Source: Vulcanimicrobiota bacterium
Lineage (GTDB): Bacteria; Vulcanimicrobiota; Xenobia; Xenobiales; JADMJV01
Reading direction: 5' to 3'
Assembly: GCA_050250895.1 (NCBI GenBank)
Contig: JBFWNU010000010.1
Span: forward strand, 64,001-128,000
Length of the DNA stretch: 64,000 nucleotides
The notes under the pieces are model-generated. The model was given only the letters and a program-made list of their open reading frames with translations, did not search any database and was not told the DNA's origin. Each line of letters begins with the position of its first letter. Within the stretch, counting starts at the first letter, position 1. The position numbers were made by a program, and so were the translations under genes. Below are positions 8,901 to 35,101 of the stretch, in pieces.

Positions 8901-11168
8901 CTAAGCGCCAGGGTTGCCGGTGATTACGACATTGTCGATATAGACGCCGTCGCGGTGGCGCGAGTCGTCGGATAGAAACCGGAATCTCAGCTTGATCTCC
9001 TGGCCGTCATAGTCCGACAGGTCGATCTTCTGGTGAGCCCAATCTTTTTCGCCGTCGAGGGTGGCCACGGCGCGCCAGGCGGTCCGCCACCACTTCTTGC
9101 CATAGACCTCGACCTTGCACTTGTCATAGCCGTCTTCGGTATCGACCTTCGAGTCGAAGTGCAACTCGGCGCCTTTCCAGTGAGTCAGATCGACCGGCTT
9201 GGAAGTGAGCGACTGATCGCGTCCCGGGCCGTAGTCGCCGCCGGGACTGTCAGTATAGACCTGGCCACGTCCGGGTGAATCGACCCTGGCCCACTCGCCC
9301 TGGGCACCCCACTGGCCGGTATCGGCGTCCATCGAGTCTTCGAAGGCCACGGGGCGACCCGGAACCGAGGTCGAGGTTGTGGCCGCCACCGAACGGTTGC
9401 CCACATTGTCGAGGCTCTGCAAAGCGAAATGCAGCTCGCGATCGGCGCCCGAGGGCGGAAAAGAGATGGCCACACTCTCGCTGTGACCGGATGGCCCGGG
9501 CCGCCCGATGCCCACCGGGGTGGCCTGGGAAAACGGGATCTGCCCCTGGCCCTCGCCGATGGGGCCAGGAGCGTAGCGCAGGTCGTAAGAGGTCGACTGA
9601 CCTTCGGTGCCGTCATCGCCGGTGGCTTTCCAGGCGAGGGTGACCTTCTCGCCATCGGTCTGCTCGACCCGAAACGACAGGGGCGAATCGGGGGCGATCT
9701 GGTCGTCTTCGAGGGCTCCGAAGGCGTTCAGGCGGCCCCCGCTGGCCAGTTGATCGCCGTAACGGGGGATCGGGTCGACCCCGGTCAGAATGCGATTCTT
9801 GATGGCCTGATTGTCGACGCCCGGATAGCGCGCCGCGATCAGGGCGGCCACGCCGGCCACATGGGGGGCGGCCATGGCCGTTCCCTCTTTGCTGCCGAAC
9901 TGGCCGCCTGGCAGGGTCGAGTAGATGTCGGTGCCGGGGGCGCACAGGTCGACGCTCTCGGCCCCGCGGTTGGTGAAGCCGGGCAAACGGTCGTTGCGGT
10001 CCGAGGCGGCCACCGCCAAAACGTTGTCAAGGTTGAAGCTGGCCGGATAGACCGACTTGCGGTCGTTGTCGTAGCCGTCATCGCCGGCGGCACACACGTG
10101 GAGTGCGCTCGACGAGCGCATCACGTCGGCCAGGGCCTGGTTGTACTTGTAACCGCCCCACGAATTGTTGGTGATGCGAGCCCCGTTCTGCTCAGCGTAG
10201 AGAAGGGCTTTCATGGCGTCGACGGTGGTGCCGCCGCGACCCGAGCCGAGGAACTTCAGGCCCATGATGCGGCCCTCCCAGTTGACTCCCGTCACACCCT
10301 GGCGGTTGTTGCCCTCGGCCGCGATGATGCCAGCGGCGTGGGTGCCGTAGCCGTTGTCGTCGTTGGGATCCCCGCTGTTGGAGACGAAGTTGGCGCCGTG
10401 CAGATCGTCGTCGTAGCCATTGCCGTCGTCGTCCCACTGGTTGTCGGCCACTTCGCGCGGGTTGGTCCACAGGTTGTTGACCAGGTCGGGGTGGTGCCAG
10501 TCGATGCCGGTATCGAGCACGGCCACGATGGGGCCGTCTTCGCGCCGTCCGGTCGACAGCGACCAGGCGCGGGTGGCGTCGATATCAGCGCCGCTACGGC
10601 CGCCATCCTGGCCGTCGTTTTTCATGTTCCACTGCGATTCGAGCAGGTCGTCGGGTTCGAGCCCTTCGTTGGGGGCCGGGGCCGGACGTACCGGCGGCAA
10701 GGCTTCACCGGCTTGGTCGCCGGCCGGGTCGTGGCTAAAAGAATGGACGATGTCGTTGGACTCGGCGTAGGCCACGCGGGGATCGCGACCGAGCACGGCC
10801 AGGCCTTCGGCGGTCGACAGGCGCGGGCCCAACTCGAGCACGGCCAGCTTGCCACCCAGACGCTCGGCCATGGCGCCCGGCGCGTCAAAGCAATGCATCA
10901 CCTTGGATTGATAGTCCTCGGCCAGTTGGCCCAGCGACTCGGCGCTCAGGCCGCCTTCGAGCTTGACGATGACCTGGCCGGGCACGAACTCGCCGGGGAT
11001 CAGTTTCTCCGCCAGCGAAGCTGCCTCTTTGCGGGCGCCGTCGACGGCCGCGTCTAAATCAAAGGGAGCCGACCGGCTCAGCCCATCCGTAGGGCTGACC
11101 TCGGGTTGCCTGGCCGCCGCCACGGGCGCGGCGACGGGCATTCTCTGCACAAAACTCTGGATGACCAC
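8901..11168 (-). CDS. S8 subtilase homologue (propeptide + S8 + FN3 + C-terminal beta-sandwich), predicted catalytically inactive
   Basis: VAVLDTG intact; NGYGTH instead of NGHGTH; AAGD instead of AAGN; GTAMA instead of GTSMA; LAWKATGDDG FN3; DGVYIDNV C-terminal module. Confidence 0.9.
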   Translation of the reverse strand: MVIQSFVQRMPVAAPVAAARQPEVSPTDGLSRSAPFDLDAAVDGARKEAASLAEKLIPGEFVPGQVIVKLEGGLSAESLGQLAEDYQSKVMHCFDAPGAMAERLGGKLAVLELGPRLSTAEGLAVLGRDPRVAYAESNDIVHSFSHDPAGDQAGEALPPVRPAPAPNEGLEPDDLLESQWNMKNDGQDGGRSGADIDATRAWSLSTGRREDGPIVAVLDTGIDWHHPDLVNNLWTNPREVADNQWDDDGNGYDDDLHGANFVSNSGDPNDDNGYGTHAAGIIAAEGNNRQGVTGVNWEGRIMGLKFLGSGRGGTTVDAMKALLYAEQNGARITNNSWGGYKYNQALADVMRSSSALHVCAAGDDGYDNDRKSVYPASFNLDNVLAVAASDRNDRLPGFTNRGAESVDLCAPGTDIYSTLPGGQFGSKEGTAMAAPHVAGVAALIAARYPGVDNQAIKNRILTGVDPIPRYGDQLASGGRLNAFGALEDDQIAPDSPLSFRVEQTDGEKVTLAWKATGDDGTEGQSTSYDLRYAPGPIGEGQGQIPFSQATPVGIGRPGPSGHSESVAISFPPSGADRELHFALQSLDNVGNRSVAATTSTSVPGRPVAFEDSMDADTGQWGAQGEWARVDSPGRGQVYTDSPGGDYGPGRDQSLTSKPVDLTHWKGAELHFDSKVDTEDGYDKCKVEVYGKKWWRTAWRAVATLDGEKDWAHQKIDLSDYDGQEIKLRFRFLSDDSRHRDGVYIDNVVITGNPGA

Positions 11169-11174
11169 CCAGAG

Positions 11175-11217
11175 AGACTATCCGAGTCCCTGCCCGAAGA
11201 TCTCAACAAATCTTGAA
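11175..11217 (-). promoter_or_regulatory. Shared promoter motif TTCAA-N6-TTGAG-N21-TAGTCT, 6 nt before GTG 11168
   Basis: Read on minus strand; same architecture at 26174-26205, 26213-26244, 34581-34612, 62340-62382. Confidence 0.6.
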
Positions 11218-11872
11218 CATCCGGCCAGGCTTGCGATAGTGATCAAGCTTGGCTCGCCTATTCTTCCGACTCGCGCAGCAGGTCGTCGAACAGGGGTAAG
11301 GTATCGGGCGCATGCTTGGCCAGGTAGCGACGAACCTCGCGGGCCCTGGCGGTCCGCTTCAACAACTCGACGATGTCCAAGAGGTCTTTTCGCCTTCTGG
11401 CTACTAGTTTCATGTAGATGAGTGGGGCGAGAGGGACGACGGTCACTCCCTGACTATGGTGCGCTTCGTCCAAGGCGGCCTCGAGATGGTCCCCAAGCGA
11501 TGCGGCGCTAAGATAGTCGATCCTGATCCCGTCGACCTCGATGGGCACGCCCGGCTTGAAAGTCACCAGTAGACCGACTTTCTCGAACGCCTCCTCTCCG
11601 ACCAGAAAGTCCACGTCGTCGGTGGCCCGAACGTAGCCGTGCGCTCCCACGGCCAGACCTCCGGCCAGGGCAAAGCGAATACCCAGATGGTCAAGCTGCG
11701 CCGCGGTTTGGAGGGCTGCCTCGCGCACCTGGGCCGAGACGAAATGAAGGACTCTTTCTAGGTCCATTGAGTCCCATGGACGACGTGGTATCTGAGCATA
11801 GGAGAGTTCCATTCCTGATGCTTCCACCTTATCACATCGGGGCAAGTCCGACCGCATCTTGAACATCCGGCC
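11210..11872. repeat. 17-bp perfect direct repeat ATCTTGAACATCCGGCC (11210-11226 and 11856-11872) bracketing a nucleotidyltransferase gene
   Basis: Exact match of both copies read from sequence. Confidence 0.85.
11258..11812 (-). CDS. Minimal nucleotidyltransferase-family protein
   Basis: FALAGGLAVGAHGYVRATDDVDFLV (GG...DxD NTase motif), MKLVARRRKDLLD. Confidence 0.8.
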   Translation of the reverse strand: MELSYAQIPRRPWDSMDLERVLHFVSAQVREAALQTAAQLDHLGIRFALAGGLAVGAHGYVRATDDVDFLVGEEAFEKVGLLVTFKPGVPIEVDGIRIDYLSAASLGDHLEAALDEAHHSQGVTVVPLAPLIYMKLVARRRKDLLDIVELLKRTARAREVRRYLAKHAPDTLPLFDDLLRESEE

Positions 11873-11997
11873 TTCTGCGCGGCCGTGGGCACGGCCGATC
11901 CGGTTGCCTGCGATAGCGGGCTCAAATACCTGCGGGGCGACCTCTACCGGGATGACTAGCGGTAGGGGCTAGCGGGCTTGCTCACGAAAACTCCCTG

Positions 11998-12555
11998 GTG
12001 GCAGGCCAGCCCCAGTCGAGCTTTCAAACTCCGGAGGAGTACCTTCGGGCGGAGCGTCTTGCTCAATCCCGCAATGAGTTCCTCGACGGCCAGGTACTCG
12101 CGATGTCAGGAGCAAGTCTTTCTCACAACGCCCTGGTAGCCAACCTCATCATGGAACTCGGGCCCCAACTGCGACCCAAAGGATGCCAAATTTATCCCAG
12201 TGACCTCAAAGTGCAGCAAGGCTCTCGGTTTTTCTATCCTGATGTCTCGGTGATTTGTGGCCAGCCCGAGTTCCACGACGATGAAAAGGATGTGGTGTTG
12301 AACCCGGCCTTGCTGGTGGAAGTGCTCTCGCCGTCAACCGAGAAATACGACAAGGGTGTCAAGTTTCTCACCTATCAGCAGATTCCGTCTCTCCAGGAAT
12401 ATCTGTTGGTTCATCAGGATCTCGTGCTGGTCGAGATCTATCGGCGTCACTCAGCAGGCTCGTGGCTCTACTCGAGGGTCGACGGGCCCGAGGGCGCCCT
12501 TGAGGTGTTGGGAGTGCAACTCTCGCTAACCGCCCTCTACGCCGGTATTCATTGA
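11998..12555 (+). CDS. Uma2 family putative restriction endonuclease
   Basis: EEYLRAE...[16 protein letters not shown]; FFYPDVSV; [31 protein letters not shown]. Confidence 0.9.
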
Positions 12556-13587
12556 AGAAAAGTGGGCTCGGGTCCGGTTGGCCAGGGCGACGAGGCTGAG
12601 CATCACGGGGACCTCCACCAGGACGCCTACCACGGTCGCCAGAGCTGCGCCGGACTGCAGTCCGAATAGGCTAATCGCCACAGCTACAGCCAGTTCGAAG
12701 AAGTTGGAAGTGCCGATCAGCGCCGCCGGGGCCGCTACCTCGTGTGGCAGTTTCCACAGGTACGACCAACCATAGGCAAGTAGAAAGATGCCGTAACTCT
12801 GAAGCACCAGGGGAATGGCGATGAGGGCGATGACGCCGGGCTGATCCAGTATGGTCTGGGCCTGGAAGCCAAAGAGCAAGACAACGGTGGCCAACAGACC
12901 AAGAATGGAGAACGGCTTCATCTTACCGGTGAGGTGGGCTACCGCTTCAGGATTTCCGGTGTCGACGATCCGCCTGGTGAGGTAGCCGGCCGTAAGGGGA
13001 ACGATCACGTAGAGCACGACCGATAGGAAGAGAGTCTTCCAGGGCACGACCACATCGGTCACGCCTAATAGGAAAGCCGCGATGGGAGCGAAGGCGAAGA
13101 CCATGATGATATCGTTGATGGAAACCTGAACCAGAGTGTAATTGGCGTCACCTCTGACGAGCTGGCTCCACACGAAGACCATCGCAGTGCACGGAGCAAC
13201 GCCGAGAAGAATCATTCCTGCGACGTATTCTCTCCCGTTCTCAGGAGAGACCATGCCTGTGAACAGGTGGTCAAAGAAGAGCACCCCCAGGGCCGCCATC
13301 GTGAAGGGCTTGATTAGCCAGTTGACTACCAGAGTTACACAGAGCCCCTTCGGCTTGCTGGCAGCGTCCTTAAGCGAAGCGAAGTCGACATTCACCATCA
13401 TCGGGTAGATCATGACCCATATGAAGGCCGCCACTACCAGGTTCACGTTGGCATATTCGAGGCCAGCGACGAATTGGAACAGTTTGGGGGCAAGCGATCC
13501 CAGTCCGAGCCCCGAGAGGATGCTCAAGGCTACCCAGATGGAGAGGTATTTTTCGAAAAGACCAAGAGGTGCGCGTTGCTGGGTCAT
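12526..13587 (-). CDS. acr3: Arsenite efflux transporter, ACR3 family
   Basis: [56 protein letters not shown]. Confidence 0.95.
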
Positions 13588-14072
13588 CACGACGCTCCCC
13601 CGGGATTGGAGCGGGAGGCCTTGACATCCGCTGAGGCGTGTTCCTCCGTTCCACCCTCGAGGCACTCGGGCAGCGTTTGCACGAACGCCCGGATCTCGTC
13701 ACGCACTCGTCGATAGTGGTCCAGAGCCTCGTCTTCGTCGGCGGCGGTTTCGGCCAGGCGGGGCGGATCGTCGAAGCCGTGATGGATTAATCTCCCTTGT
13801 CCCAAGAAGAGAGGGCAAGTTTCGCGAGCGTTCCCGCAGACGGTGACGACATAATCGAATTCCTGCTCTTCGAACTCCTCCACCGTCTTGGACCATTGAC
13901 TGCTGATGTCAACGCCCACTTCCTTCATGACCTGAACTGCTCTCGGGTTCAAGCCTTGGGCCAGGATGCCGGCCGAGTAGGCATCGAATTGGTCGGACCG
14001 AAGGGCTCGTGCCCAGCCCTCGGCCATCTGGCTGCGACAAGAGTTTCCAGTGCAGAGAAAGAGGATTCGCAT
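13587..14072 (-). CDS. arsC: Arsenate reductase, LMW-PTP/thioredoxin type
   Basis: [21 protein letters not shown]....ETCP, FDDP. Confidence 0.95.
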
Positions 14073-14081
14073 GGCGCTCGC

Positions 14082-15008
14082 TTACTTGATGGCAAAGACC
14101 TTGACCGAGGCCGCGTAGGCGTTGACATCGTACCGCCGCAGCAGCTCGCCGAGGTCTTGATGCATCGGCTTGCGGCTGGGGTTCGGCGAGCAACAGGCCT
14201 CCGAGTCCTGCGGGGCCGGTGAGCAACAGCTTGATTCCTCAGGTGCGGGCGAGCAACAGGCACCCGAACTCGCGGGGGCCGGCGAGCAACAGGCGGCCGC
14301 GCCTTCGGCCTGAGCGTAGGCCATCAGGTCGGCGCCGCTGTCGATGATAGCGACTTCTGAGAAGCCCGCTTCCCTCAGGCCCTGTTCATACTCCTGGATG
14401 GTCACGGCCCCGGCGATACAGCCGACCAGCGCGGCCGCGTTCTGGGCTAACTCGTCGGGCAATTCCTGTTTAAGAGCAATGTCCGAGATGGCCACCCGGC
14501 CGCCGGGCTTGAGCACCCGATGCATCTCCTGAAAGACCTTCCGTTTGTCCGGGGCGAGGTTGATCACGCAATTGCTGATGACTACATCGGCGCTGGCGTC
14601 GGAGAGGGGCAGGTCGTCGATCTGGCCTTCGAGGAATTCCACATTCTGATAGCCCCCTTTGACGGCGTTGGCCCGGGCCAGTTCGAGCATTTGGGGGGTC
14701 ATGTCGATGCCGATGGCCTTGCCCGTCGGGCCCACCTGAGCGGCGGCCAGAAAGACGTCGAGGCCGCCGCCAGAGCCGAGGTCGACCACGACCTCGCCGG
14801 GTTTAAGATGGGCCGTGGCCAGGGGATTTCCGCAGGAGAGTCCCATGTTGGCCTCGGCAGGGATCGATTCCAGTTCCTCGGCGCTGTAACCGAAGGCCTG
14901 AGCCACGGCCTGGATGCCGGCGTTCTGGCCAGACAAGCCGCTTTCGGCGGTTTCTCCGTATTTCTGCTGGATCAGCTCGGTGATGCTCTTCATCGGATGG
15001 GTCTCCAT
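14082..15008 (-). CDS. arsM: Arsenite S-adenosylmethionine methyltransferase
   Basis: [34 protein letters not shown]; Cys-Cys repeat insert near C-terminus. Confidence 0.93.
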
Positions 15009-15009
15009 T

Positions 15010-15024
15010 TCGTTGAATTACGAT
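15010..15024. promoter_or_regulatory. Second putative ArsR operator TCGT-N6-ACGAT between arsR stop and arsM start
   Basis: TCGT TGAATT ACGAT matches the palindrome at the arsR start. Confidence 0.5.
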
Positions 15025-25909: not shown

Positions 25910-26167
25910 TTAGTCGCGTCGCATGGCTTTGGCCAGGGCTGCTAGCGGCAGTCCGATCAGAAGCCCCAGGGCCAGGCTGCTGGCCGCCTGCTTGGAGGTG
26001 CGGACCAGTTCCGCTCCGGGGCGAGGTGCCGGCGCCTTTATTGGTGGCTCGGGGTCAACCGACCGGGTGTAGCCGTCTGCGGGCACGGGGGTGGGGTCGG
26101 CGCCGATAGCCGGGCGCAGGCCCTGGGCTCTGGCGGTGGGGGGAAAGAAGTTGGGTCTCACGAGCAT
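25910..26167 (-). CDS. Small hypothetical protein: disordered leader + single C-terminal TM helix
   Basis: 85 aa; PADGYTRS motif; LALGLLIGLPLAALA; promoter motif 6 nt upstream. Confidence 0.65.
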   Translation of the reverse strand: MLVRPNFFPPTARAQGLRPAIGADPTPVPADGYTRSVDPEPPIKAPAPRPGAELVRTSKQAASSLALGLLIGLPLAALAKAMRRD

Positions 26168-26173: not shown

Positions 26174-26244
26174 AGCCTAGCTCAGGGACCTGAAAACTAT
26201 CTGAACATCGCTTTCCAGGAAATTTCAGAGCCTGCAGATAGACT
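26174..26244. promoter_or_regulatory. Back-to-back copies of the shared promoter: minus TTCAG-N6-TTCAG-N10-TAGGCT (26174-26205); plus TTCCA-N6-TTCAG-N10-TAGACT (26213-26244)
   Basis: Spacings counted directly; each copy points to a leader-bearing gene. Confidence 0.65.
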
Positions 26245-26269
26245 GAAAAAAACGCATTCGGAGAATGAA

Positions 26270-26713
26270 ATGATCCACGCCACCAATGTTTCTTCGCTGT
26301 CCTACACTCGCGCCCTGAGCGCCTATCGTGCCGCCAGCCCCGAGGCTGACTCGACTCCCCAGCTTCCCCTCGACGGGGTGACCATCTCCGCTCAGGCCCA
26401 GGCCCGCCCCCATCGCAGCGGTCTGGCCGGCGTTTCGAAATTTGTAGCCCTGGCACTGTGCGCCGGCGCCATGCTGGGGGCCGCCGGGTGCGCCAGCACC
26501 GGCCCCATGGCCGGGCAGCACCAGCCCGCCAACCCCTATCGTCAAGCCGGGCGCGACCTTCACGAGGTCGGCCAGCAGGGCAAAGAGGTCGGCCAGGCCA
26601 TCGGGCGCAAAGGCGCCGAGGTCGGCCGCGAAGTGGGCGAGCAAGGCAAGAAGTTTGGCCTGGGCGTGCGCGATGCCGCCGTCGAGTTCTGGAAGGGCCT
26701 CAAGGGCGAGTAG
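26270..26713 (+). CDS. Hypothetical protein: disordered leader + internal lipoprotein signal (AAGC, Cys74) + amphipathic G/K/E helical repeats
   Basis: PLDGVTIS; RSGLAGVSKFVALALCAGAMLGAAGC; EVGQQGKEVGQAIGRKGAEVGREVG. Confidence 0.75.
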   Translation: MIHATNVSSLSYTRALSAYRAASPEADSTPQLPLDGVTISAQAQARPHRSGLAGVSKFVALALCAGAMLGAAGCASTGPMAGQHQPANPYRQAGRDLHEVGQQGKEVGQAIGRKGAEVGREVGEQGKKFGLGVRDAAVEFWKGLKGE

Positions 26714-27287
26714 TCACTCGCCGGCCATCATAGCTCAAGTTTTCCGTGGCCCCGGGAGGCGAGGTGGCGATCTGCTCGTCGGCCGGATAGAGCGCCACTC
26801 GCGTTACCGAGCGGTCGGTCCCCGGTCCACTCGTGCCCACCGCGAAAGAGACCGGGCCCTCGGCCGTTTCAAGGCGCACAATCGAGCCGGTATTACCTTG
26901 TGGCCGTGGCATGCCATCCATGAGCATTTGCCCATTCTTGACCTCCAGCCGGTGGGGGCGTCCGTCTGTTCCGCAATAGTTGATGCGGGCCGTGCCGTCG
27001 GGCGCCCACTCCACCTGGCCTCCTGGAAACTCACTAATTTGTCCGCGCTGCAACTCGCGGGGATAGTTCTTTGGCTGGCCGCCGTCGAGCCCGAAGTTGG
27101 CCGCCAGGGCCGCTCCTCGCTCGACGGCTACGAAGGCGACAAAGCGGTCTTCGAGGTCCAGGGCAGTGTGCACCCTCCGGCGTCCCTGGCAGCCTGACCC
27201 AACCGGAGACCGGGCCGACTGCGAGCAGGCTTGGCGTGACGGGGGATGGCCGAGGGGAATGGCGCAGAAGCGAAAGTTGATGAGCAT
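26700..27287 (-). CDS. Hypothetical protein
   Basis: Strong RBS AAGGAGG before ATG 27287; MLINFRF... low-complexity leader, then beta-rich domain. Confidence 0.6.
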   Translation of the reverse strand: MLINFRFCAIPLGHPPSRQACSQSARSPVGSGCQGRRRVHTALDLEDRFVAFVAVERGAALAANFGLDGGQPKNYPRELQRGQISEFPGGQVEWAPDGTARINYCGTDGRPHRLEVKNGQMLMDGMPRPQGNTGSIVRLETAEGPVSFAVGTSGPGTDRSVTRVALYPADEQIATSPPGATENLSYDGRRVTTRP

Positions 27288-27472
27288 GGGGTGGTCCTCC
27301 TTCTGGTTGCGGGCGCCTTTTGGCGTCGCCGATGGGTCAAGCATAGGGCAGACGTTCGGACGGGCCTTTTGCCGTCTGGTTAAATGGATGTGTCGAAAGT
27401 GTTGAAAAATTATGAACATGCACTCGAGAGGCCCTCGGGCTCGGCCGGTAGAACCTCGCACATCGATGGGAA

Positions 27473-30400: not shown

Positions 30401-30709
30401 CCGGTGCCGGTACCCGTGCGCATCAACGGCCGAGTATTGGTCGAGAGACCGCTAGCCGGCCGCGTGGGGCCCACGGAGATCGTCTTGCACTTTCCTCAGG
30501 CCCGACTTCGCATGGTGCTCGAACTCGAGCATGGCCAGACCGAGTATGATTTCTCGGCCAATTTCAGTCCTGACCGAGTGCCTGCCACGGCCTCACTGAC
30601 TCTTCGCAAGGCAGGCTATCACCCCGTCAAATTGACGGGCATTCGCCTGGTCGACGGCCAGGCCCAGGTACCCGAAGTGACGCTCCTTCCCGAGGAGCAG
30701 GAGCGGTAG
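27473..30709 (+). CDS. Two GAF-like domains + very long acidic Glu/Pro repeat linker + small C-terminal beta domain
   Basis: SIMCVPLL...LFYAQS; GIRSVAACPLFD...GLLYLDS...FRSRELNLL; several hundred E/P/A-rich residues. Confidence 0.8.
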   Translation: MALDRLAPEELREKVAQAVLVKILRGLRPQCAAVLFPEAEGLRVWAARGVKSPSALAQDLTVLEVLKTKHSITRERGYCSIMCVPLLDWGQGVEALFYAQSASGRFFQQREMDWLDALASKAREKLWGPEPPEPAEGDTPGRSLTDAAQEVLDTVVEVLSPERAAIFFQEPPNEELAVLASHQLPRENFLTEAPVSFALLESLWEKGEPVNIVDAQQHELADLEGIKEHGIRSVAACPLFDQENKVRGLLYLDSCQEAGLFRSRELNLLRQLGEKLANEWPAALAVHKPSEEDWSAVLDSLSKTKSNRQISGWEVLLESLARNDGEAHDVSRPTEELARPIELEAFIPRFSEPDDDNLIFEFDEAESDEELVDLPEVVPVPRVEKIKARPEPEWIEETPAAPGADPPPALELVTINKLFRGKALFQRSLRGRKGPGPRSEAGDEEVAASEELPTSEPDAYAPASEPEQPAETPLGAPTVVFGSETMRLGMAPAEGWQPAQTSWEAPSPAEQAEEWGPWVNMAMAAEPTFTSTEEQPDEESFDEALLDDYPEEFDLQAPAGEPDRPEAESPSESASAAWVDEPQPAWPVAEPVWPASDWPAEGEAAAAGPGLEPRIELEPPPEFVERAAPDLKAEPEEWAAEPEVEEAEPEEWAAEPEVEQVEAAPEEWAAEPEVGQVEAEPEEWSAEPEVEEVEPEEWSAEPDVDEIDSEAEEGAAQPEAERVEAEPEELTAEPEDDEAEPEVEQVEAEPQEWAAEAEAEPEELTTEPEAEAEPEELATEPESEAEPEELTTEPKSEAEPEELTTEPESEAEPEELTTEPEAEAEPEELTTEPEAESEPEELTIEPQAEPEAEEFAPVFQEEFGFVPDSDEMAVEADPEPPAEPNDESFEAEPEPFSGPVRTSGQNDDGWESQEPAVEMLVEETRAMAFDSMELAVEPTMEEGIRLVVPVPVAPPPTPSLFERILRWIGLKSTPEGPVPVPVRINGRVLVERPLAGRVGPTEIVLHFPQARLRMVLELEHGQTEYDFSANFSPDRVPATASLTLRKAGYHPVKLTGIRLVDGQAQVPEVTLLPEEQER
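29370..30010 (+). repeat. Intragenic tandem repeats: EPEEW(A/S)AEPEV units, then 7 x 39-bp units encoding AEPEELTTEPEAE
   Basis: Repeated GCTGAACCGGAAGAGCTGACCACTGAGCC at about 29745-30005. Confidence 0.9.
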
Positions 30710-30829
30710 ACTCCCCACCATGGAAAGGGCCTTGCGTTCGTGAAGTCCGCTCGTGCTCACCGGCCTGGCGACTTGCAACTGGAAGACCCTTCAGGAGGAA
30801 CCGGGATAGGGCTTGCCAAACGGCTGGGC

Positions 30830-32695
30830 ATGCATCGAAAAATCCTGCTTTTGCTAGCTTTGATTACTGTGACTGGACCGGCTCTGGCCCAGGGCATTCG
30901 CGTCGAACTCGATGGGCGGATGCTCAGCTTCGACCAGCCTCCGGCCATGATTGACGGGCGTTTGATGGTGCCCCTGCGTGGCATCTTCGAGGCTCTTGCG
31001 GCCGAGGTGCTCTATGACGGACCGACGCGAACCATCAAAGCCACCAAGGGCAGTACCGTGGTCGAACTCACCCTCGGCAGCCAGGCCGCTAAGGTCAACG
31101 GCAACAACGTCTATCTCGACGTGCCGGCCGGCACCCTGGGCGGTCGCACGATGGTTCCTTTGCGCTTCGTCTCCGAAGCTCTTGGCGCCGAGGTCAAATG
31201 GGACGGACTGACCAAGACCGTGCGCATCGCCGGCAGCGGCGGGGTGGTGGATAGCCCGGCTCCGCCTCCCACCAGCGGCGGGGAGCGTCCTGCGATTCAG
31301 TCGGTCATCCACACCGCCACCTCGACTCTGGCGCCCGGCCAGAGCTTTGACGTGGTCATTCTGGGCGACCCGGGTTGCCGGGCTCGCTTCGAGATCGTGG
31401 GCGCCATCCGCAGCGTGACCGTGCCCGAAGTGCGCAGTGGTCGCTACGAGACCCGCTACACGATCCCCAACGGCTTGCAAGTCGAGGGCGGGGTGCTGAT
31501 CGGCTATCTCACCAAGAATGGCCTCGAGACCGCCTCTGAAGCCAACCGCACCGTGACCATCCGGGGAGCGGCCGCGCCCCAACCGGCGGCCGACTGGGAG
31601 GTCTCCCCCGCTCCCAACTCCACCGTCAGCGAGACCCGCCCCACGATTACCGTAAACCCCCCGGGACGGGGCCGGCCGGACAACGTTCGCCTCTATGTCG
31701 ACGGTATCGATTTCTCTAACCAGGTGGACCGCCGTCGCCGCATCACCTGGACCCCGACCTACGATCTCAATCCCGGGACCCATCAGGTCGAAGTGGTGGT
31801 GGGCGACAACAATAGTCCTGAGCCTCAGACCTACACCTGGAGCTTCACTATCGGGGCCCCCACCACCGGCACGACCAATTTCTTCCCCACCAACGGTTCC
31901 ACCGTCACCGAGTCGCGGCCCCAGATCGGAGCCTCCTTCTCCACCGCCGTCAACAACCCGCGCCTGATCATCGACGGCGGTGATTTCACCGGCTCCTCGG
32001 TCGTCAGCGGCAACCAGATCTTCTGGAACCCCCCTTACGACCTGAGTCCGGGCCTTCACCGCGTGCAGGTCACGGGCTATGACCTCAACGGCCGTGCTCT
32101 CAACTACAACTGGACCTTCACCCTGAGCGCCCAGAACAATTCCATCACCGACGTGAGCTTTGCTCCCACGACCTTGCAGTCGGGGCAGACCACCACCATC
32201 ACCGTGCGTGGCCCGGGCGGAGCCTACGGGACTTACTCCCTTTCGAACGGTCGCAGTGGGGTCTTGCGCGAGATCCAAACGGGCGTCTACCAGGGCACCT
32301 ACACGGCCACCGGCGTCGACCAGGGCAGCGTCAGCCTGACCGCCCAGTTGCGCCTGACCAACGGCCAGACCATCAGCGCCAATGCACCCAGCAATTTGAG
32401 CTTCAACACCAGTTCGCTGACCGTCGACAACCTGCGCGACGGCATGACCGTGCCGGTGAGCTTCAACGTTCAGGGCAGCGGCGTTCCCGGTTCGCAGGTG
32501 GTGGTTCGGGTCACTTATCCCAAAGGCGATGTTTTCGGCACCAACTTGACCTTCCAGGCGGTCGGCCTGGTCGGAGCCAACCGTCGCTACGACATTAGCG
32601 TCGACGCCTCGCAGGTGCCCAGCGGCCGCCAGATGACGGTGCAGGTTAGCGATAGCGCCGGGAGCGCTCCCATCGTGATCACCCTTCGGCGTTGA
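30830..32695 (+). CDS. Secreted protein with copper amine oxidase N-terminal (stalk) domain and tandem Ig-like domains
   Basis: MHRKILLLLALITVTGPALA signal; GRLMVPLRGIFEAL, GRTMVPLRFVSEALGAEVKWD; duplicated ETRP..LxVDGxDF..YDLxPGxH modules. Confidence 0.88.
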   Translation: MHRKILLLLALITVTGPALAQGIRVELDGRMLSFDQPPAMIDGRLMVPLRGIFEALAAEVLYDGPTRTIKATKGSTVVELTLGSQAAKVNGNNVYLDVPAGTLGGRTMVPLRFVSEALGAEVKWDGLTKTVRIAGSGGVVDSPAPPPTSGGERPAIQSVIHTATSTLAPGQSFDVVILGDPGCRARFEIVGAIRSVTVPEVRSGRYETRYTIPNGLQVEGGVLIGYLTKNGLETASEANRTVTIRGAAAPQPAADWEVSPAPNSTVSETRPTITVNPPGRGRPDNVRLYVDGIDFSNQVDRRRRITWTPTYDLNPGTHQVEVVVGDNNSPEPQTYTWSFTIGAPTTGTTNFFPTNGSTVTESRPQIGASFSTAVNNPRLIIDGGDFTGSSVVSGNQIFWNPPYDLSPGLHRVQVTGYDLNGRALNYNWTFTLSAQNNSITDVSFAPTTLQSGQTTTITVRGPGGAYGTYSLSNGRSGVLREIQTGVYQGTYTATGVDQGSVSLTAQLRLTNGQTISANAPSNLSFNTSSLTVDNLRDGMTVPVSFNVQGSGVPGSQVVVRVTYPKGDVFGTNLTFQAVGLVGANRRYDISVDASQVPSGRQMTVQVSDSAGSAPIVITLRR

Positions 32696-34541
32696 GGTCC
32701 AGGCCGCGAACCTTACCAAACATCGACAAGCCCTCGATCAGCATCCAAATCTGAAGACAGAGCACTCCGCCGCCGAAGCCTAGCAACAGATAGTTCTGCT
32801 GGGTCAGCCATCCGGTGGTGGAGTTGAACATCTGCCACAGCATGGCCCAGGCCGGCAGCAGGATCATCAGGGCCATCGGCCCCAGCAAGAACCAGACCGG
32901 CCGGTTACGGCGCAACAGATAGAACGACACCACCATAAAGGCTAAGCCGGCCAGCAGCTGGTTGATGGCCCCGAACAAGGGCCACAGGATCAGGCCGCCG
33001 CTGCCCGGACCTCGGGTGCCGGGATAGAAAGCTACCAGCAGGCCCAATCCGACGGCCAGAGCGGTGGCTGCATACTTGTTGGTGAAGAGCCCAAAGTGGA
33101 GCGATTCGGCCAACTCTTGCACCACATAGCGCTGCAAGCGGGTGGCCGTGTCGAGAGTGGTGGCCGCAAAGCTTGCCACCAGCACGGCGATGATGGCGAT
33201 ACACAGTTTGATGGGCAGGCCCAGGGTCGAGAGAAAGTTGGCTCCGCCCTCGATGAAACCGGCCAGCTGATCGGCCAGGGCCAGGCTCGCCCAACCCCCT
33301 TTTTGTTCGACTTCGCCGTTCTCTTTGATGACGGCTCGCACCGGGGTGTAGTGATGCAGCCAGGCGTCTCGCCCCTTGAGCGCCTGGCCGGTCTCGGCGG
33401 CGATGGCGGGCAGATAATCGTATTGAGCCCCTTTGCCGTCGCGATCCCACTCGCCCATCCCCAGACCGCTGCAGCAACAGAGGATGACCAGCACGGCCAG
33501 AGCGCCTTCCAGCAGCATGGCACCGTAGCCGATGCTCTGGGCATCGGTCTCGCACTCGACCTGTTTGCTGGTGGTGCCGGAGCTGACCAGGCAATGAAAG
33601 CCGCTGATAGCGCCGCAGGCGATGGTGATAAACAGAAAGGGCAAGATGGGAGGGGCGTCGGGTGGGATTTCGGTGGCCACGGCCGGGGCGGTGGCGAACA
33701 GGCTGACCTGACCGGTGAGGCTGGCCACGGCCAAGCCCGTCACCAGCATTCCCAGGGCTACCAGCAATTGATGGCTGTTGATGTAGTCGCGCGGCTGTAA
33801 CAGCACCCACACCGGCAAGACCGAGGCGATGAAGCAGTAGACGAACAGTAGCACCGTCCAGAAGACCACCGTGTTCTTGAGGGTGGGGTGGAACAGCGGC
33901 AGCGGAATCTCCACCGGCAGCCAGTAGCAACCCACCACGATGAACCCGTACATCAGGATCAAAGCCACGATGGAAGGGATGAGCAAACCGCCCTTGCGCT
34001 TGTAGGCCCACCAGCCGACCGCGATGGCGATGGGGATCTCCATCCAGACCGACAGCACCGTCTCGGGATAGACGCTGAAGATGATGGCGATGACCAGCCC
34101 GAACACGCCCAGCACGATGGTGAGGGCAAAGAACAAGATGAGCAAGAAGACCAGGCGGGCGCGCGGGTTGATCAGGCGTCCGGCCAGATCGCCCACCGTC
34201 TTGCCTTCGCTCCGCATTGAGACCACCAGGGCCCCGAAATCGTGGACCGCCCCGATGAAGATCGAGCCGAAGATCACCCACAGCAGGGCCGGCAGCCAAC
34301 CCCAGAAGACGGCCACCGCCGGGCCCACGATAGGACCGGTGCCGGCGATGCTGGTGAAGTGATGCCCAAAGACGATCTCGGCCTTGGTGGGCACATAGTC
34401 CACCCCGTCATTGACGGTATGAGCCGGAACCGGGTTCTCGGGGTGAAGGCCGAAGATCTTGTCGGCCAACCATTTGCCGTAGGTTCGGTAGGCGACAATG
34501 AATCCGACAAAACTAAGAAAGGCGACCAGCAGGGTATCCAC
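32679..34541 (-). CDS. cstA: Carbon starvation protein A (peptide/pyruvate transporter)
   Basis: DGVDYVPT, GHHFTSIAGTGPIVGP, LPVWVLLQPRDY, TIACGAISGFH, TTLDTATRL, WPLFGAINQLL. Confidence 0.95.
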   Translation of the reverse strand: MDTLLVAFLSFVGFIVAYRTYGKWLADKIFGLHPENPVPAHTVNDGVDYVPTKAEIVFGHHFTSIAGTGPIVGPAVAVFWGWLPALLWVIFGSIFIGAVHDFGALVVSMRSEGKTVGDLAGRLINPRARLVFLLILFFALTIVLGVFGLVIAIIFSVYPETVLSVWMEIPIAIAVGWWAYKRKGGLLIPSIVALILMYGFIVVGCYWLPVEIPLPLFHPTLKNTVVFWTVLLFVYCFIASVLPVWVLLQPRDYINSHQLLVALGMLVTGLAVASLTGQVSLFATAPAVATEIPPDAPPILPFLFITIACGAISGFHCLVSSGTTSKQVECETDAQSIGYGAMLLEGALAVLVILCCCSGLGMGEWDRDGKGAQYDYLPAIAAETGQALKGRDAWLHHYTPVRAVIKENGEVEQKGGWASLALADQLAGFIEGGANFLSTLGLPIKLCIAIIAVLVASFAATTLDTATRLQRYVVQELAESLHFGLFTNKYAATALAVGLGLLVAFYPGTRGPGSGGLILWPLFGAINQLLAGLAFMVVSFYLLRRNRPVWFLLGPMALMILLPAWAMLWQMFNSTTGWLTQQNYLLLGFGGGVLCLQIWMLIEGLSMFGKVRGLDLNAEG

Positions 34542-34580
34542 GCCACGGGTTTCGCGATGGGTCCGGGCAGGGCCTATCCG

Positions 34581-34612
34581 TTCAGTGTGTTTTGAGGTCG
34601 CCAGGTTAGATT
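34581..34612 (+). promoter_or_regulatory. Shared promoter TTCAG-N6-TTGAG-N10-TAGATT, 6 nt before ATG 34619
   Basis: Spacings counted directly. Confidence 0.65.
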
Positions 34613-34618
34613 GCGCCC

Positions 34619-35101
34619 ATGCAGATCCGTTGTCATCAGCCTATCGCGCATGCCGCCAACTTGCGCCACATCGCTCCTCCTACCACTGCGGGCGCCTCGA
34701 ACGTGCCCACGGAAGAGGTCGAACTGAGCGTGCCCTCCTCGGCCGCCGCCGAAGCCGGTCGCTCTTCGGGCCTGGCGGGCCTGGCCAAGACCGCCGCCAT
34801 GGTAGGCCTGGCCCTGACCGGAGTCAGCTTGCTGGCCGGTTGCGACGGAGCCCCGCCCAGTCAGGGCGCCGGCACCAGCCAGAGCCAGCCCACCAGTCAG
34901 CGCTACAACTGGACCACCGGCGAGTTCGAGCACGCCAAAGAAGGCGACAAGCTGCGCTACAACGTCTGGGAAGGCGAGTTCGAGTACGCTGGCAAGAACG
35001 ACAAAATGCGTTACAACTGGGCCGAGGGCAAGATGGAGCGGGCGCCCGCCGACGCCAAGCTGCAATACAACTGGCTCTCGGGCAAGTTCGAGTACCGCTA
35101 G
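34619..35101 (+). CDS. Hypothetical protein: disordered leader + internal lipoprotein signal (LAGC, Cys75) + four 19-aa YN(W/V)xxG(E/K)(F/M)E repeats
   Basis: PTEEVELS; RSSGLAGLAKTAAMVGLALTGVSLLAGC; RYNWTTGEFE, RYNVWEGEFE, RYNWAEGKME, QYNWLSGKFE. Confidence 0.8.
   Translation: MQIRCHQPIAHAANLRHIAPPTTAGASNVPTEEVELSVPSSAAAEAGRSSGLAGLAKTAAMVGLALTGVSLLAGCDGAPPSQGAGTSQSQPTSQRYNWTTGEFEHAKEGDKLRYNVWEGEFEYAGKNDKMRYNWAEGKMERAPADAKLQYNWLSGKFEYR

Follow-up and report, generated by a model that had tools for sequence, protein, structure and literature searches.

Within the window, the 64,000-nt stretch of DNA analysed here, four genes (P1–P4) had been proposed in an earlier note to encode otherwise unrelated proteins with a shared N-terminal leader, and two further open reading frames (ORFs) had been listed as weaker candidates. 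The host is an uncultured soil/sludge bacterium, its phylum given as Eremiobacterota, with a genome of 9.5 Mb and 63% G+C. The features are as follows (the genes P2–P4 from translation, P1 from Pfam and NCBIfam matches):

8901..11168, − strand: P1 gene, 755 aa
9876–9878, −: P1 catalytic Ser replaced by an Ala codon (GTAMAAP against GTSMA in the paralogs L080 and L092)
11019..11168, −: P1 leader region, aa 1–50, starting M/V-VIQSF
11070–11093, −: P1 PTDGLSRS motif, aa 26–33
11175..11180, −: P1 −10-like hexamer TAGTCT, 6 nt before the GTG start, leaderless layout
25910..26167, −: P2 gene, 85 aa, with a Pro/Ala-rich N-terminus
25922–25981, −: P2 C-terminal transmembrane (TM) segment
26060–26083, −: P2 PADGYTRS motif, aa 29–36
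26174..26207, −: P2 promoter TGTTCAG..TTTTCAGG..TAGGCT (PWM 33.3 bits)
26211..26244, +: P3 promoter ..TTTCAG..TAGACT, same tandem-box class (PWM 24.1 bits)
26270..26713, +: P3 gene, 147 aa, leader followed by a lipoprotein signal peptide
26270..26431, +: P3 leader, aa 1–54
26366–26389, +: P3 PLDGVTIS motif, aa 33–40
26432..26491, +: P3 hydrophobic core, ending in lipobox GAAGC
26489–26491, +: P3 lipobox Cys, aa 74
26700..27461, −: weaker candidate ORF (LEDRFVAF; start at 27287 in the earlier note), not a member
34579..34612, +: P4 promoter GTTCAG..TTTTGAGG..TAGATT (PWM 32.7 bits)
34619..35101, +: P4 gene, 160 aa, with leader, lipoprotein signal peptide and a small repeat-bearing mature part
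34619..34783, +: P4 leader, aa 1–55, starting MQIRCHQP, with an IAPP box
34706–34729, +: P4 PTEEVELS motif, aa 30–37
34784..34843, +: P4 Gly/Ala-rich hydrophobic core, ending in lipobox LLAGC
34841–34843, +: P4 lipobox Cys, aa 75
61486..62298, −: weaker candidate ORF (TPDSVSLK), not a member

All four motifs lie where they had been reported, and membership differs between the genes. P3 and P4 are clear family members (leader-profile scores of 37.5 and 49.5 bits), and a close ortholog of P4 (P0009) keeps the motif despite leader substitutions and a one-codon in-frame indel. P1 combines a degenerate leader (only 6.6–8.2 bits) with a Fervidolysin-type prodomain, an S8 subtilase domain and a MAM/choice-of-anchor-J domain, and its PTDGLSRS aligns with PSESVSLS and PQDRVQLG of L080 and L092. 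Both paralogs are active, share the architecture of P1 and have canonical leaders in the corresponding position; they show P1 to be a degenerate family member that has lost its catalysis, and its earlier description as a dead subtilase is correct. The score of P2 is not significant (2.7–4.4 bits), and it is probably a divergent member because its architecture is like that of small leader-plus-TM members and its promoter is the second-best site of its class genome-wide. Neither weaker candidate gave a leader-profile score, and both are dropped as leader proteins; the ORF at 26700..27461 did not score even with filters off and matched no Pfam family, and that at 61486..62298 has early acidic residues and lacks box 1 of the leader. 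The statement that none of the proteins has a hydrophobic signal peptide holds for P1, which has no hydrophobic signal, but not for P3 and P4, in which a core with lipobox directly follows the leader.

The leader is ~45–55 aa long and comprises a first box M-x-[IV] with acidic residues absent from the first ~12 positions, often a second box R-x-APP, and a third box P-x-[DE]-x-V-E-L-[SG] starting at residues 23–36. A profile seeded with 23 curated leaders, P1 and P2 left out, was iterated against the six-frame ORFs of the whole genome, and 47 ORFs scored above the best and 75 above the fifth reversed-sequence decoy, with real matches of up to 53 bits against decoy maxima of 16–18 bits. The core motif is present in 42/68 family leaders, compared with 0.45/68 expected from composition-shuffled leaders (~90-fold) and 34/1894 background N-termini, and chance likeness thus fails as an explanation. 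The window genes are part of a lineage-specific family of at least 50–75 genes in this genome, probably more, which is far larger than the group first claimed.

Sixty-nine members have a start codon at the projected leader position, and in 58 of these a Shine-Dalgarno sequence (28) or a leaderless layout, with a −10-like hexamer, then ~6 nt, then the start (30), is located exactly at the first Met. This leaderless signature was found for 14/25 curated leader starts and for 195/5013 first ATGs of long ORFs. Orthologs in other genomes retain the motif within diverged flanks, including a P0004 ortholog with a one-codon in-frame indel. The reservation that the real starts might lie downstream was thus answered in favour of the leader Met, and these data support the leader as a shared, translated, intrinsically disordered N-terminal module on otherwise unrelated proteins.

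Many leader genes carry a promoter of one class, often in the layout of a leaderless mRNA, in which two TTTCAG-type boxes spaced 11 bp precede a TAGGCT-type −10 and end ~10 bp short of it; a PWM scan of the genome gave 438 sites at ≥14 bits against 112 in the reversed control. In P4, 6 nt separate the end of the −10-like hexamer from the ATG, a leaderless layout, and the hexamer of P2, whose promoter is divergent from the P3 promoter, likewise lies 6 nt ahead of its ATG. Between the P3 promoter and its start codon is a 25-nt 5′ leader that includes a Shine-Dalgarno sequence (GGAGAA, 26260–26265), and the box-like repeats further upstream of P1 (about 11201–11218) have a spacing unlike the class consensus. 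Pho boxes are ~11-bp direct repeats ~10 bp upstream of the −10 that replace the −35, and the class resembles such PhoB/OmpR-type activator sites in its two direct repeats, its ~11-bp periodicity, its distance of ~10 bp from the −10 and its use of tandem boxes in place of a −35 element. Unlike those, it has hundreds of sites and may therefore be sigma-factor-specific or a general promoter type of the lineage; PhoU and PstS, looked for to test the Pho reading, were not detectable.

In about two thirds of the members, P3 and P4 included, the leader is followed by a Sec-type hydrophobic core, often with a lipobox, which represents a signal peptidase I or II type signal or a TM anchor. About ten have unmistakable lipoprotein signals at this place, and others have cleavable A-x-A signals. 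These cores start at aa ~41–57, contain more glycine than ordinary N-terminal cores of the same genome (3.38 vs 1.27 Gly per 17 aa, p=4e-18), and have a lower hydropathy (1.9 vs 2.2). For about one third the leader is the only N-terminal signal, and these include subtilases, a metalloprotease, a clostripain-like protease, glycosidases and nucleases. The proposal that the cargo is extracytoplasmic in type holds for most of the family (M48, S8, M4/M36 and C11 proteases, GH76, GH32/43 and GHL10 glycosidases, Exo_endo_phos, PQQ propellers and lipoproteins), the exceptions being enzymes typical of the cytoplasm (adenylate kinase, ADP-dependent sugar kinase, DJ-1, PI3/4-kinase-like).

In GHL10 and prodomain-S8 proteins, the leader occupies the position of the classical Sec or lipoprotein signal peptide of other lineages, and paralogs in the same order also carry such signal peptides there. 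Among the 40 closest GHL10 homologs, our classifier called 19 leaders, 2 signal peptides and 19 as none, the latter mostly sub-threshold leaders by eye, while the next 80 comprised 56 with a signal peptide or TM segment, 24 with none and 0 leaders. In the order itself, the leader is found on class A copies and cleavable signal peptides on class B copies; genomes of group g2 hold both, and G005 and G007, both without SecA2 (see below), have GHL10 only in the signal-peptide form. For the prodomain-S8 subtilases, a hydrophobic signal was found in 1/120 closest homologs, the single one from Bacteroidota, where it directly precedes the prodomain. As the leader sits where homologs of two enzyme families carry signal peptides, it probably acts in export or sorting, and in this form the earlier idea of a dedicated export route is retained.

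Only one class of the phylum has the leader. Among 151 genomes of the phylum, leader matches were found in 19/22 with at least two SecA_DEAD matches and 10/129 with at most one; 46–150 candidates, part of all, were scored per genome with a profile trained mainly on G000, and the leader counts in other genomes are therefore underestimates. The genome has one SecY and two SecA, one a paralog (SecA2) of 1194 aa with an N-terminal extension of ~160 aa and with TPR and ExbD genes as neighbours or, in G002, an FlhA-type TM protein. Four 7–8-Mb genomes of family f12 have one SecA and no convincing leader, and G066, from another family (7.4 Mb), has both SecA2 and leader. Plausible leader proteins were also seen in genomes with one SecA found (G017, G025, G005), extra SecA matches without leader matches in G039, G050 and G055, and the number of SecA paralogs does not scale with leader count (6 SecA and 4 leader matches in G009). 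No clustering of leader genes around SecA2 is seen in G000, the one exception being a borderline Endonuclease I gene 2 kb away, with a leader-like N-terminus (12–14 bits) and a promoter site of 30.4 bits. The long SecA paralogs of three genomes have a box-3-like motif in their own N-terminal extensions, which gave no score with the leader profile. The association of SecA2 with the leader is a correlation, and phylogeny confounds it because a single class contributes most of the signal.

We propose that the leader is recognised in the cytoplasm as an export or sorting tag, which would direct some of the envelope and secreted proteins away from default SRP/Sec targeting and into another route. 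The tag would precede the weak Gly/Ala-rich core in about two thirds of the members and be the only N-terminal signal in the rest. The likeliest recogniser would be an accessory SecA-type motor, the 1194-aa paralog paired with the TPR protein, as suggested by co-occurrence. To our knowledge, no Sec-family route exports via a conserved non-hydrophobic N-terminal tag, which counts against the proposal, as do the cytoplasmic enzymes among the cargo; as a whole we consider it to be on balance the probable one. The presence of the same tag ahead of, or in place of, a secretion signal points to an undescribed protein-sorting route.

Alternatively, though this seems unlikely to us, the leader may be a cytoplasmic disordered tail with short linear motifs for a purpose other than export, for instance in regulated proteolysis, in binding to a scaffold in the cytoplasm or at the pole, or in keeping a regulator sequestered until insertion or cleavage. 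Three conserved boxes over ~45 disordered residues do resemble partner-binding motifs, and by the positive-inside rule the leader of TM and signal-peptide members would be cytoplasmic, staying on that face until cleavage. The cytoplasmic enzymes among the cargo fit such a tail, co-regulation alone could explain part of the grouping given the many genes with one promoter class, and the box-3-like motif on the long SecA paralogs of three genomes would be explained by a common docking site no less well than by a substrate tag, although it does not score with the profile. Left unexplained are the replacement of signal peptides in GHL10 and prodomain-S8 proteins and the loss of export signals by enzymes with an extracellular function (M4/M36, C11, MAM-domain prodomain subtilases and Endonuclease I).

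The earlier suggestion of type III (flagellar-type) substrates we judge improbable: the first ~15–20 residues would be the signal proper, the D-x-V-E-L-S strand a chaperone- or gate-binding motif, and exit would be via one of the flagellar gates, perhaps with help from the numerous stand-alone FlhA-C paralogs. Apart from type III export, no bacterial route is known to use a non-hydrophobic, disordered N-terminal signal, and TM-bearing type III substrates have low-hydropathy segments, as do the post-leader cores. Two full sets of FlhA/FlhB/FliR are encoded in flagellar loci of the genome, and eight ORFs have the FlhA C-terminal docking domain alone. In S8 proteins nothing persists as well as the extreme N-terminus (M-I-x...), which is kept even where the rest is lost. 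Leaders are enriched over background in an aliphatic residue or Pro at position 3 or 4 (85% vs 55%), in lacking acidic residues in the first 12 (88% vs 44%), in Ser >10% (28/68 vs 243/1894) and in all three Pseudomonas syringae rules combined (22/68 vs 94/1894), but this is a generic property, such rules being neither necessary nor specific in the P. syringae study concerned (PMC3338616). The flagellar gates that a search for an export apparatus did recover track no leader: FHIPEP is present in 41/41 related genomes, leaderless clades included, the second FlhA does not follow leader abundance (leader-rich f2 genomes show one full-length copy), the two FlhA loci appear to be flagellar and showed no injectisome markers, and the nearest leader gene in G000 is >26 kb from any FlhA or FlhA-C gene. 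Type III signals are normally not conserved in sequence, whereas the leader is, and the genome's own FlgM, flagellin and FlgL-like protein lack box 1. The cores and lipoboxes in about two thirds of members are a feature that a type III substrate would not need, lipoprotein and cleavable A-x-A signals making sense only for Sec export.

A link to FlgM had also been drawn, and as homology it is unsupported: no Pfam family, FlgM included, matched any of 44 leaders at E≤10, the genome's own FlgM did not score with the leader profile, and a profile search of all PDB sequences returned no FlgM chains.

That the true starts are further downstream, with the leaders being 5′ untranslated sequence or a likeness driven by composition, is largely refuted and highly improbable. 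In its favour are the long open frames that a high G+C content produces, the in-frame GTG codons of P3 and P4 (residues 37–38) and the lack of a significant score for P2. Against it stand the start signals precisely at the first Met, the excess over shuffled sequence, the gap between decoys and real matches, a likeness at protein level with in-frame indels and divergent flanks, and the many GHL10 and S8 homologs, their starts called independently by many annotation pipelines, in which the catalytic domain follows directly on the leader and an alternative start is absent.

Compared with known systems, the leader is like type III signals and FlgM in being disordered and Ser/Thr/Pro-rich, with an aliphatic position 3 and no early acidic residues (PMC3338616, for the signals it describes). 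Its strand-like motif at residues ~25–40 recalls a type III chaperone-binding region, and the genome's own FlgM reads M-T-V..., ~35 disordered residues, then S-V-E-V-S. Unlike type III signals, it forms a scorable sequence family followed in most members by Sec or lipoprotein signals, and its distribution does not follow flagellar genes. The ESPR of autotransporters and two-partner secretion is likewise a conserved addition before the Sec signal peptide of a subset of exported proteins, but is ~25 aa long, proteobacterial and restricted to type V cargo, and in every case has a hydrophobic core behind it; no Pfam family, PF13018 included, was matched among the 44 leaders. SecA2-only export in mycobacteria, Listeria and relatives shares with our genome one SecY, two SecA and mixed cargo; we know of no conserved N-terminal tag on those substrates, and the SecA paralog here is much longer and has different neighbours, beside TPR and ExbD genes. 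The accessory-Sec (SecA2/SecY2) substrate GspB differs in its KxYKxGKxW-type motif (no such NCBIfam match for P1–P4), in having a second SecY and serine-rich glycoprotein cargo, in the core that about one third of leader proteins lack, and in a host without the outer membrane that our organism, with 2 secretins found, probably has. It is like the leader proteins in the long N-terminal extension that places the core ~50–80 residues in, in the presence of a second SecA and in a glycine-rich core (3.4 vs 1.3 Gly here), and in Streptococcus gordonii those glycines are described as routing GspB export to SecA2 (PMC5578698).

The four genes for which the earlier note had proposed a common N-terminal leader were all found, with their motifs, at these positions of the window:

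8901-11168, minus strand: P1, subtilase with a Fervidolysin prodomain, an S8 domain and a MAM/choice-of-anchor-J domain, and no hydrophobic signal
25910-26167, minus strand: P2, 85 aa, with a Pro/Ala-rich N-terminus and a single C-terminal transmembrane (TM) segment
26270-26713, plus strand: P3, with a predicted lipoprotein signal (Cys 74) directly after the leader
34619-35101, plus strand: P4, with a predicted lipoprotein signal (Cys 75) directly after the leader

The window is C10:64001-128000 of the source genome (G000; 9.5 Mb, 63% G+C, 17 contigs, 99.6% complete), for which named homologs ('Candidatus Xenobia bacterium', 'Candidatus Eremiobacterota', 'Vulcanimicrobiota') indicate membership of Eremiobacterota. 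In their first ~80 residues, P3 and P4 resemble the N-termini of longer, different proteins of this genome and its relatives, with identities of up to 52%. The shared module of about 50 aa consists of box 1 (M-x-[IV]), often box 2 (R-x-APP), and box 3, the core motif P-x-[DE]-x-V-E-L-[SG]. A profile of 23 curated leaders, from which P1 and P2 were excluded, was iterated against 106,610 six-frame ORFs with reversed ORFs as decoys, and in the last round 47 ORFs exceeded the 16.0 bits of the best decoy and 75 exceeded the 12.2 bits of the fifth. Of these 75, 69 have a start codon where the leader is projected to begin. Gene calls and starts derive from heuristics (a GC3 filter and start-context rules), and the leader profiles are short (50–55 positions) and biased towards this genome. 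A looser earlier iteration was discarded, as the profile had moved off onto repetitive sequence (C3, ~497-498 kb); the tandemly repeated ORF fragments on the minus-oriented strand of this region (...PDPRRRPLARSAASPSAAAWPSQRR.HFQLEVPASA...) were caught by that iteration.

Members of the family differ in composition from 1894 background N-termini with supported starts. Residue 3 is I or V in 49/69 members (71% of 68 members, compared with 18% of the background), the first 50 residues contain 31% S+T+P versus 18%, and the first 25 residues contain 4.6% Leu versus 11.9%. The core motif, starting at residues 23–36, is present in 42/68 members, compared with 34/1894 background proteins and an expected 0.45/68 in composition-shuffled leaders, and thus the possibility that it merely reflects Pro/Ala-rich sequence, which the earlier note had raised against its own proposal, clearly fails. 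Since even the background proteins have the core motif three times as often in the N-terminal window as in an internal window of the same size (34 vs 11 of 1894), the true family is probably larger than the profile recovers. As it stands, the leader is carried by about 1% of the proteome of a lineage that is rich in biosynthetic gene clusters and has hardly been studied.

On their profile scores, P4 (49.5 bits) and P3 (37.5 bits) are members of this family. The statement that none of the four proteins has a hydrophobic signal peptide was wrong for these two, as both fit the sequence criteria for lipoproteins processed by signal peptidase II, with a positive n-region, a hydrophobic core, a lipobox of the form [LVI][ASTVI][GAS]C (P3 ...MLGAAGC(74)ASTGP; P4 ...SLLAGC(75)DGAPPSQ) and a flexible linker, and differ from ordinary lipoproteins in that this predicted signal begins about 50 residues from the N-terminus. 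P1 scored only 6.6–8.2 bits. Its description as a dead subtilase was correct, the catalytic Ser being replaced by Ala (GTAMAAP, compared with GTSMA in its paralogs; codon 9876-9878). The Asp and His motifs are retained in P1, and the paralogs L080 and L092, which share its domain architecture, have an intact catalytic Ser and canonical leaders (...PSESVSLS... and ...PQDRVQLG...) where P1 has PTDGLSRS. Because its paralogs carry canonical leaders at the same place, and because nearly all of 120 homologs begin with M-I-x, P1 is a degenerate member of the family; a dead subtilase kept with its prodomain and MAM domain may serve as a binding or decoy protein. A search of related loci with P0001 yielded nothing but a Bacteroidota subtilase of 31% identity. 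The score of P2 (2.7–4.4 bits) is not significant, and we consider it only a probable member, since it resembles the small members composed of a leader and a TM segment and its promoter site ranks second in the genome within the shared class. The two weaker candidates, ORFs 26700-27461 and 61486-62298 on the minus strand, received no score from the leader profile and were rejected as members. The genes around P1–P4 are an unrelated mix (an ars-type operon, GGDEF, EamA, GAF, CstA) with no export machinery. At 59864-61126 (plus strand), the window also contains a 420-aa ORF with a C-terminal Cys/His-rich, HNH-like segment (...CERCSC...HHV...CPGCHAVEH...).

The leaders are very probably translated. 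Among the 69 leader starts, 30 have the sequence layout of a leaderless mRNA, in which a −10 hexamer ~6–7 nt before the start codon would make the transcript begin with the A of ATG; the −10-like hexamers here (TAGGCT, TAGATT and similar) lie about 6 nt before the start. Another 28 starts have a Shine-Dalgarno sequence and 11 have neither. A strict version of the leaderless-mRNA signature was present at 14/25 curated starts, whereas in long ORFs it accompanies 195/5013 (3.9%) of the first ATGs, and over all ATGs the share is 0.5%. An almost identical P4 ortholog in a public protein library shows substitutions and a one-codon in-frame indel within the leader and leaves PTEEVELS unchanged, and in more than 20 other genomes the leaders are N-terminal with the same start contexts, the motif being kept and the flanks having diverged.

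The members with predicted leaderless mRNAs share an upstream consensus TTCAG(−38)...TTTTnAGG(−29)...TAGaCT(−12). The strict tandem-box pattern was found at 7/25 leaderless and 0/28 Shine-Dalgarno family genes, and at 17/306 other leaderless and 6/1588 Shine-Dalgarno background genes. A genome-wide search with a position weight matrix (PWM) for the class TTTCAG-N5-TTTCAGG-N9-TAGGCT gave 438 sites of at least 14 bits, compared with 112 in the reversed control, so the promoter class is large and not private to the leader family; it serves genes with leaderless and with leadered mRNAs. Where a site lies in the leaderless position, the product very often begins with M-x-[IV] and a Pro-rich leader, and many such products were missed by the protein profile. 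Sites of the class in the window are:

26174-26207, minus strand: promoter site of P2, 33.3 bits
34579-34612, plus strand: promoter site of P4, 32.7 bits
26211-26244, plus strand: promoter site of P3, 24.1 bits, followed by a 25-nt 5′ leader with GGAGAA
12189-12222, minus strand: weak PWM match to the class

P1 has the layout of a −10 hexamer, 6 nt and a GTG start codon, but its box spacing differs from that of the class. The promoter geometry, with two repeats 11 bp apart ending about 10 bp before the −10 hexamer, is that of OmpR/PhoB-type activator sites. Neither PhoU (PF01895) nor PstS-type (PF12849) genes were detected in the source genome, which thus offers no Pho-box reference site. In a related genome (G006), a PHO4-family phosphate transporter adjoins a leader gene (L158:3479-4954).

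The proteins behind the leader are diverse, and 45 of the 68 full-length members matched no Pfam family at E≤1e-4. The Pfam assignments of the remainder include:

Peptidases: M48 (two), S8 with prodomain and MAM domain (two), C11, M4/M36
Glycosidases and related: GH76, GH32/43/68, GHL10
Other extracytoplasmic types: Exo_endo_phos, PQQ propellers (two), a 1466-aa MAM protein, a lipid desaturase, a DAO oxidase
Unexpected: adenylate kinase, ADP-dependent sugar kinase (L091), DJ-1/PfpI (L071), PI3/PI4-kinase-like (L069)

At C14:19260-20015 (L096) and C14:23062-23628 (L032) lie an adenylate kinase with a leader-type extension of about 70 residues and, 3 kb away, the best-scoring leader protein. A hydrophobic segment is located within the first 140 residues of 44/69 members, mostly starting at residues ~40–57, and a lipobox is present in 10/69; many small members consist of the leader and Gly-rich TM segments. 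The hydrophobic cores behind the leader are distinct from this genome's ordinary N-terminal cores, with 3.38 versus 1.27 Gly per 17 residues (42 vs 371 cores, p=4e-18), more Ala (29% vs 16%), less Leu (18% vs 28%) and a lower mean hydropathy (1.9 vs 2.2).

We take as our main argument for the function of the leader that it stands where homologous enzymes carry a Sec signal, which suggests an export or sorting signal for a route or destination other than default Sec. For the GHL10 glycosidase (L041), 120 homologs were classified by conservative rules according to what precedes the conserved beginning of the catalytic domain (...V-x-H-x-RELRGAWV). The 40 closest homologs (about 58–100% identity) comprised 19 with a leader, 2 with a signal peptide and 19 assigned to neither, the last being by eye mostly leaders under the 12-bit cut, and the other 80 (Myxococcota and others) comprised 56 with a signal peptide or TM segment, 24 with neither and none with a leader. 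One homolog with 66% identity (P0025) has, by eye, a lipoprotein-type hydrophobic N-terminus that was not flagged by the lipobox expression, at the place that the leader takes in its neighbours. GHL10 forms two paralog classes in the order, class A with the leader (clades g1, g2 and g4) and class B with cleavable signal peptides. Three genomes (G005, G007 and G015) have copies of class B only, and in g2 class B provides a second copy. For the prodomain-S8-MAM subtilases, a hydrophobic signal was found in only 1 of the 120 closest homologs, the single Bacteroidota protein, where it directly precedes the prodomain; conservative rules gave 55 leaders and 64 others for the remainder, nearly all of which begin by eye with M-I-x. 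The leader thus occupies the position of the Sec signal in homologous enzymes, and both forms can coexist in one genome.

The best candidate for a machine reading the leader is a second SecA. The source genome has two SecA proteins and one SecY, and its second SecA (SecA2, 1194 aa) has all SecA domains (DEAD, PPXD, P-loop, wing/scaffold) and an N-terminal extension of ~160 aa. A broader profile of 43 leaders from 21 genomes, run over 151 genomes of the phylum, which are non-independent samples and for which per-genome scoring covered part of the candidates, detected the leader in 29, essentially confined to the class of the window with the addition of G066, a 7.4-Mb genome of another family. 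By clade it was found in 12/12 genomes of f1, 3/3 of f2, 2/2 of f4, 1/1 of f5, 6/17 of f3 and 1/82 of f14. Two or more SecA_DEAD matches (E≤1e-40) were present in 22 genomes, 19 of which have the leader, compared with 10, mostly weak, of the 129 genomes with at most one match; such matches do not equal copy numbers, fragmented assemblies blur both counts, and the tallies include one unpublished genome (G122) as a single-SecA row. When the genomes were divided slightly differently (20/23 vs 9/128, with the long-type SecA of G097 counted), a Fisher test gave p~3e-15 without correction for phylogeny. The association cannot be put down to genome size alone, since four genomes of 7–8 Mb in clade f12 have a single SecA and no more than one weak leader match, and G066 has both. 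There are exceptions in both directions, with plausible leader proteins in three genomes with one SecA (G017, G025 and G005) and extra SecA matches in three genomes without the leader (G039, G050 and G055), and because of these and the blurred counts we hold SecA2 only as the leading candidate. Long SecA paralogs (ORFs of 800–1500 aa) have multiplied in this lineage, with up to six SecA_DEAD matches in G009 and 4–5 in G001.

Features of possible relevance to such a machinery are:

C12:63314-66898 of the source genome (L132:9315-12899): SecA2, with a divergent TPR gene on one side and two ExbD/TolR genes on the other
L159 (G002:C1:308000-326000), 6773-11987, minus strand: SecA paralog of 1188 aa and, ~90 bp downstream on the same strand, a 519-aa protein with only the TM half of the FlhA-type family FHIPEP (positions 4-399)
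C6:529401-530381, C1:2013982-2014740, C1:2475431-2476438, C7:121919-122905, C1:1126976-1127566, C7:117253-118194, C1:2008860-2009774 and C8:31716-32150 of the source genome: eight ORFs of 379–1024 aa with only the C-terminal cytoplasmic docking domain of FlhA/SctV (FlhA-C; FHIPEP ~260-656)

The divergent TPR gene is paired with a long SecA in both G006 and the source genome. An Endonuclease I gene 2 kb from SecA2 has a borderline leader-like N-terminus (12–14 bits) and a promoter site of 30.4 bits; leader-like N-termini on SecA2 itself or its TPR neighbour were rejected, as neither receives a profile score. The N-terminal extensions of three long SecA proteins each contain a motif resembling box 3, although they do not score with the profile. 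The L159 locus is a possible hybrid operon of a SecA motor and an FlhA channel. FlhA-C-only paralogs were found in 41/41 genomes and are expanded in the large ones, from 2 FHIPEP matches in small genomes to 19 in G002; one such paralog of G006 carries a classical signal peptide, and among the eight of the source genome one has an XRE-type HTH-like N-terminus and one, of 1024 aa, has hydrophobic N-terminal stretches. An unlikely model would make the leader the address tag of an unrecognised export route in one Eremiobacterota class (Xenobia-like). A long SecA-like motor with the same short motif in its N-extension, a conserved TPR partner and FlhA-derived membrane and cytoplasmic domains, such as the TM-only FHIPEP gene behind the SecA of G002 and the FlhA-C-only paralogs present throughout the order, would then export even proteins without a hydrophobic signal. 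The route would serve to bring out hydrolases and small Gly-rich membrane proteins as one regulon, and its use might be predation.

The earlier note had likened the leader to FlgM and to substrates of type III secretion, and parts of the composition do agree with the latter. An aliphatic residue or Pro at position 3 or 4, as in the P. syringae-type rules, is present in 85% of 68 members compared with 55% of 1894 background N-termini, and 88% versus 44% lack an acidic residue in the first 12. The third rule, >10% Ser in the first 50 residues, is satisfied by a minority of the family (28/68, vs 243/1894), with P1 (4 Ser) and P2 (1 Ser) failing, and the three rules jointly hold for 22/68 members and 94/1894 background proteins. 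These rules are described as neither required nor specific for type III substrates (PMC3338616). The source genome has one FliS, a true FlgM and two full FlhA/FlhB/FliR sets, both in flagellar loci (C1:585691-587613 and C1:1458965-1460971; L029 and L030), the first with MotAB, FliE, FlgB/C, FliF, FliG and FliH, and the second with FliOPQ, FliMN, an FlgE-like protein, FliK and an SLT lytic transglycosylase; the two sets could be a split or duplicated export gate.

The type III reading is not supported in other respects. Its apparatus does not track the leader, as FHIPEP is present in 41/41 related genomes, including a small-genome clade mostly without the leader, and the expectation that type III substrates are free of Sec signals is contradicted by the hydrophobic cores and lipoboxes of the family. 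Homology to FlgM was likewise not supported: none of 44 leaders matched any Pfam family at E≤10, a genome-wide search with PF04316 recovered one true FlgM, which has no score with the leader profile, and not a single leader protein, and a PDB-wide profile search (E≤10) returned no FlgM chain. Box 1 is not shared by the genome's own FlgM, flagellin or FlgL-like protein, and no leader gene of this genome lies within 26 kb of an FlhA or FlhA-C gene. In four g2 genomes, P3 homologs had been considered syntenic with an FlhA-C paralog, and this was dropped because the neighbours at the G010 locus are unrelated (DUF1800/DUF1501). A search for class I type III chaperones (CesT) gave no match and was equally silent in control genomes, so it is uninformative, and a search for WXG100/T7SS gave no match.

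A Tat signal was rejected by eye, since P3 has ..RPHRSGLAG.. and P4, with a single Arg, ..EAGRSSGLAG.. in place of S/T-R-R-x-F-L-K before a weakly hydrophobic core; most members have [RK]-S-x-x-[LW], and RR is occasional (L055 and L036). Curated N-terminal extensions such as ESPR (PF13018) and YSIRK gave no Pfam match for 44 leaders (E≤10) and no relevant NCBIfam match for P1–P4. Among 1.84 billion representative proteins, only close orthologs of the leader proteins of the source genome and one chance match to a Calx-beta-type repeat scored above the whole-library threshold, and a search of the literature, taken apart from the secretion-system supplement of PMC9259500, found no description of the leader. 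The same paper suspects related marine Eremiobacterota with large genomes of a predatory lifestyle, and reports in them signs of predation along with secretion systems and degradative enzymes (PMC9259500).

We rate the leader as an N-terminal targeting pre-sequence, and so as a known kind of signal in a new form; that it marks a categorically new export route is improbable in our judgement. To our knowledge and within our searches, what is new is the pairing, in that the leader both precedes normal Sec and lipoprotein signals and, in homologous enzymes, replaces them without a hydrophobic segment. Because the usual prediction tools would class hydrolases with only a leader as cytoplasmic and overlook the signal peptides of other members, the secretome, lipoproteome and start-site annotation of this lineage would be systematically off. 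Sorting tags that can be scored in sequence, such as Tat, the lipobox, LPXTG, the T9SS CTD and PEP-CTERM, each led to a dedicated machine and to predictable secretomes, and the leader profile, SecA paralog, TPR partner and FlhA-derived paralogs together form a concrete candidate set for a new export route.

Among known systems the comparison is with accessory Sec (SecA2/SecY2), the substrates of which are described as having extended, Gly-rich signal peptides (PMC5578698). The leader proteins differ from these in that no motif of the KxYKxGKxW type was found in P1–P4 (NCBIfam, E≤1) and in that the source genome has only one SecY. They are alike in having an extended N-region and a Gly-rich core, the cores mostly starting at residues ~41–57, and the second SecA with a full domain set alongside a single SecY would be compatible with SecA2-only accessory export, in which the substrates depend on the second SecA. 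The extended signal peptide of accessory Sec, combined with SecA2-only export of mixed cargo, is the closest working analogy for the leader.
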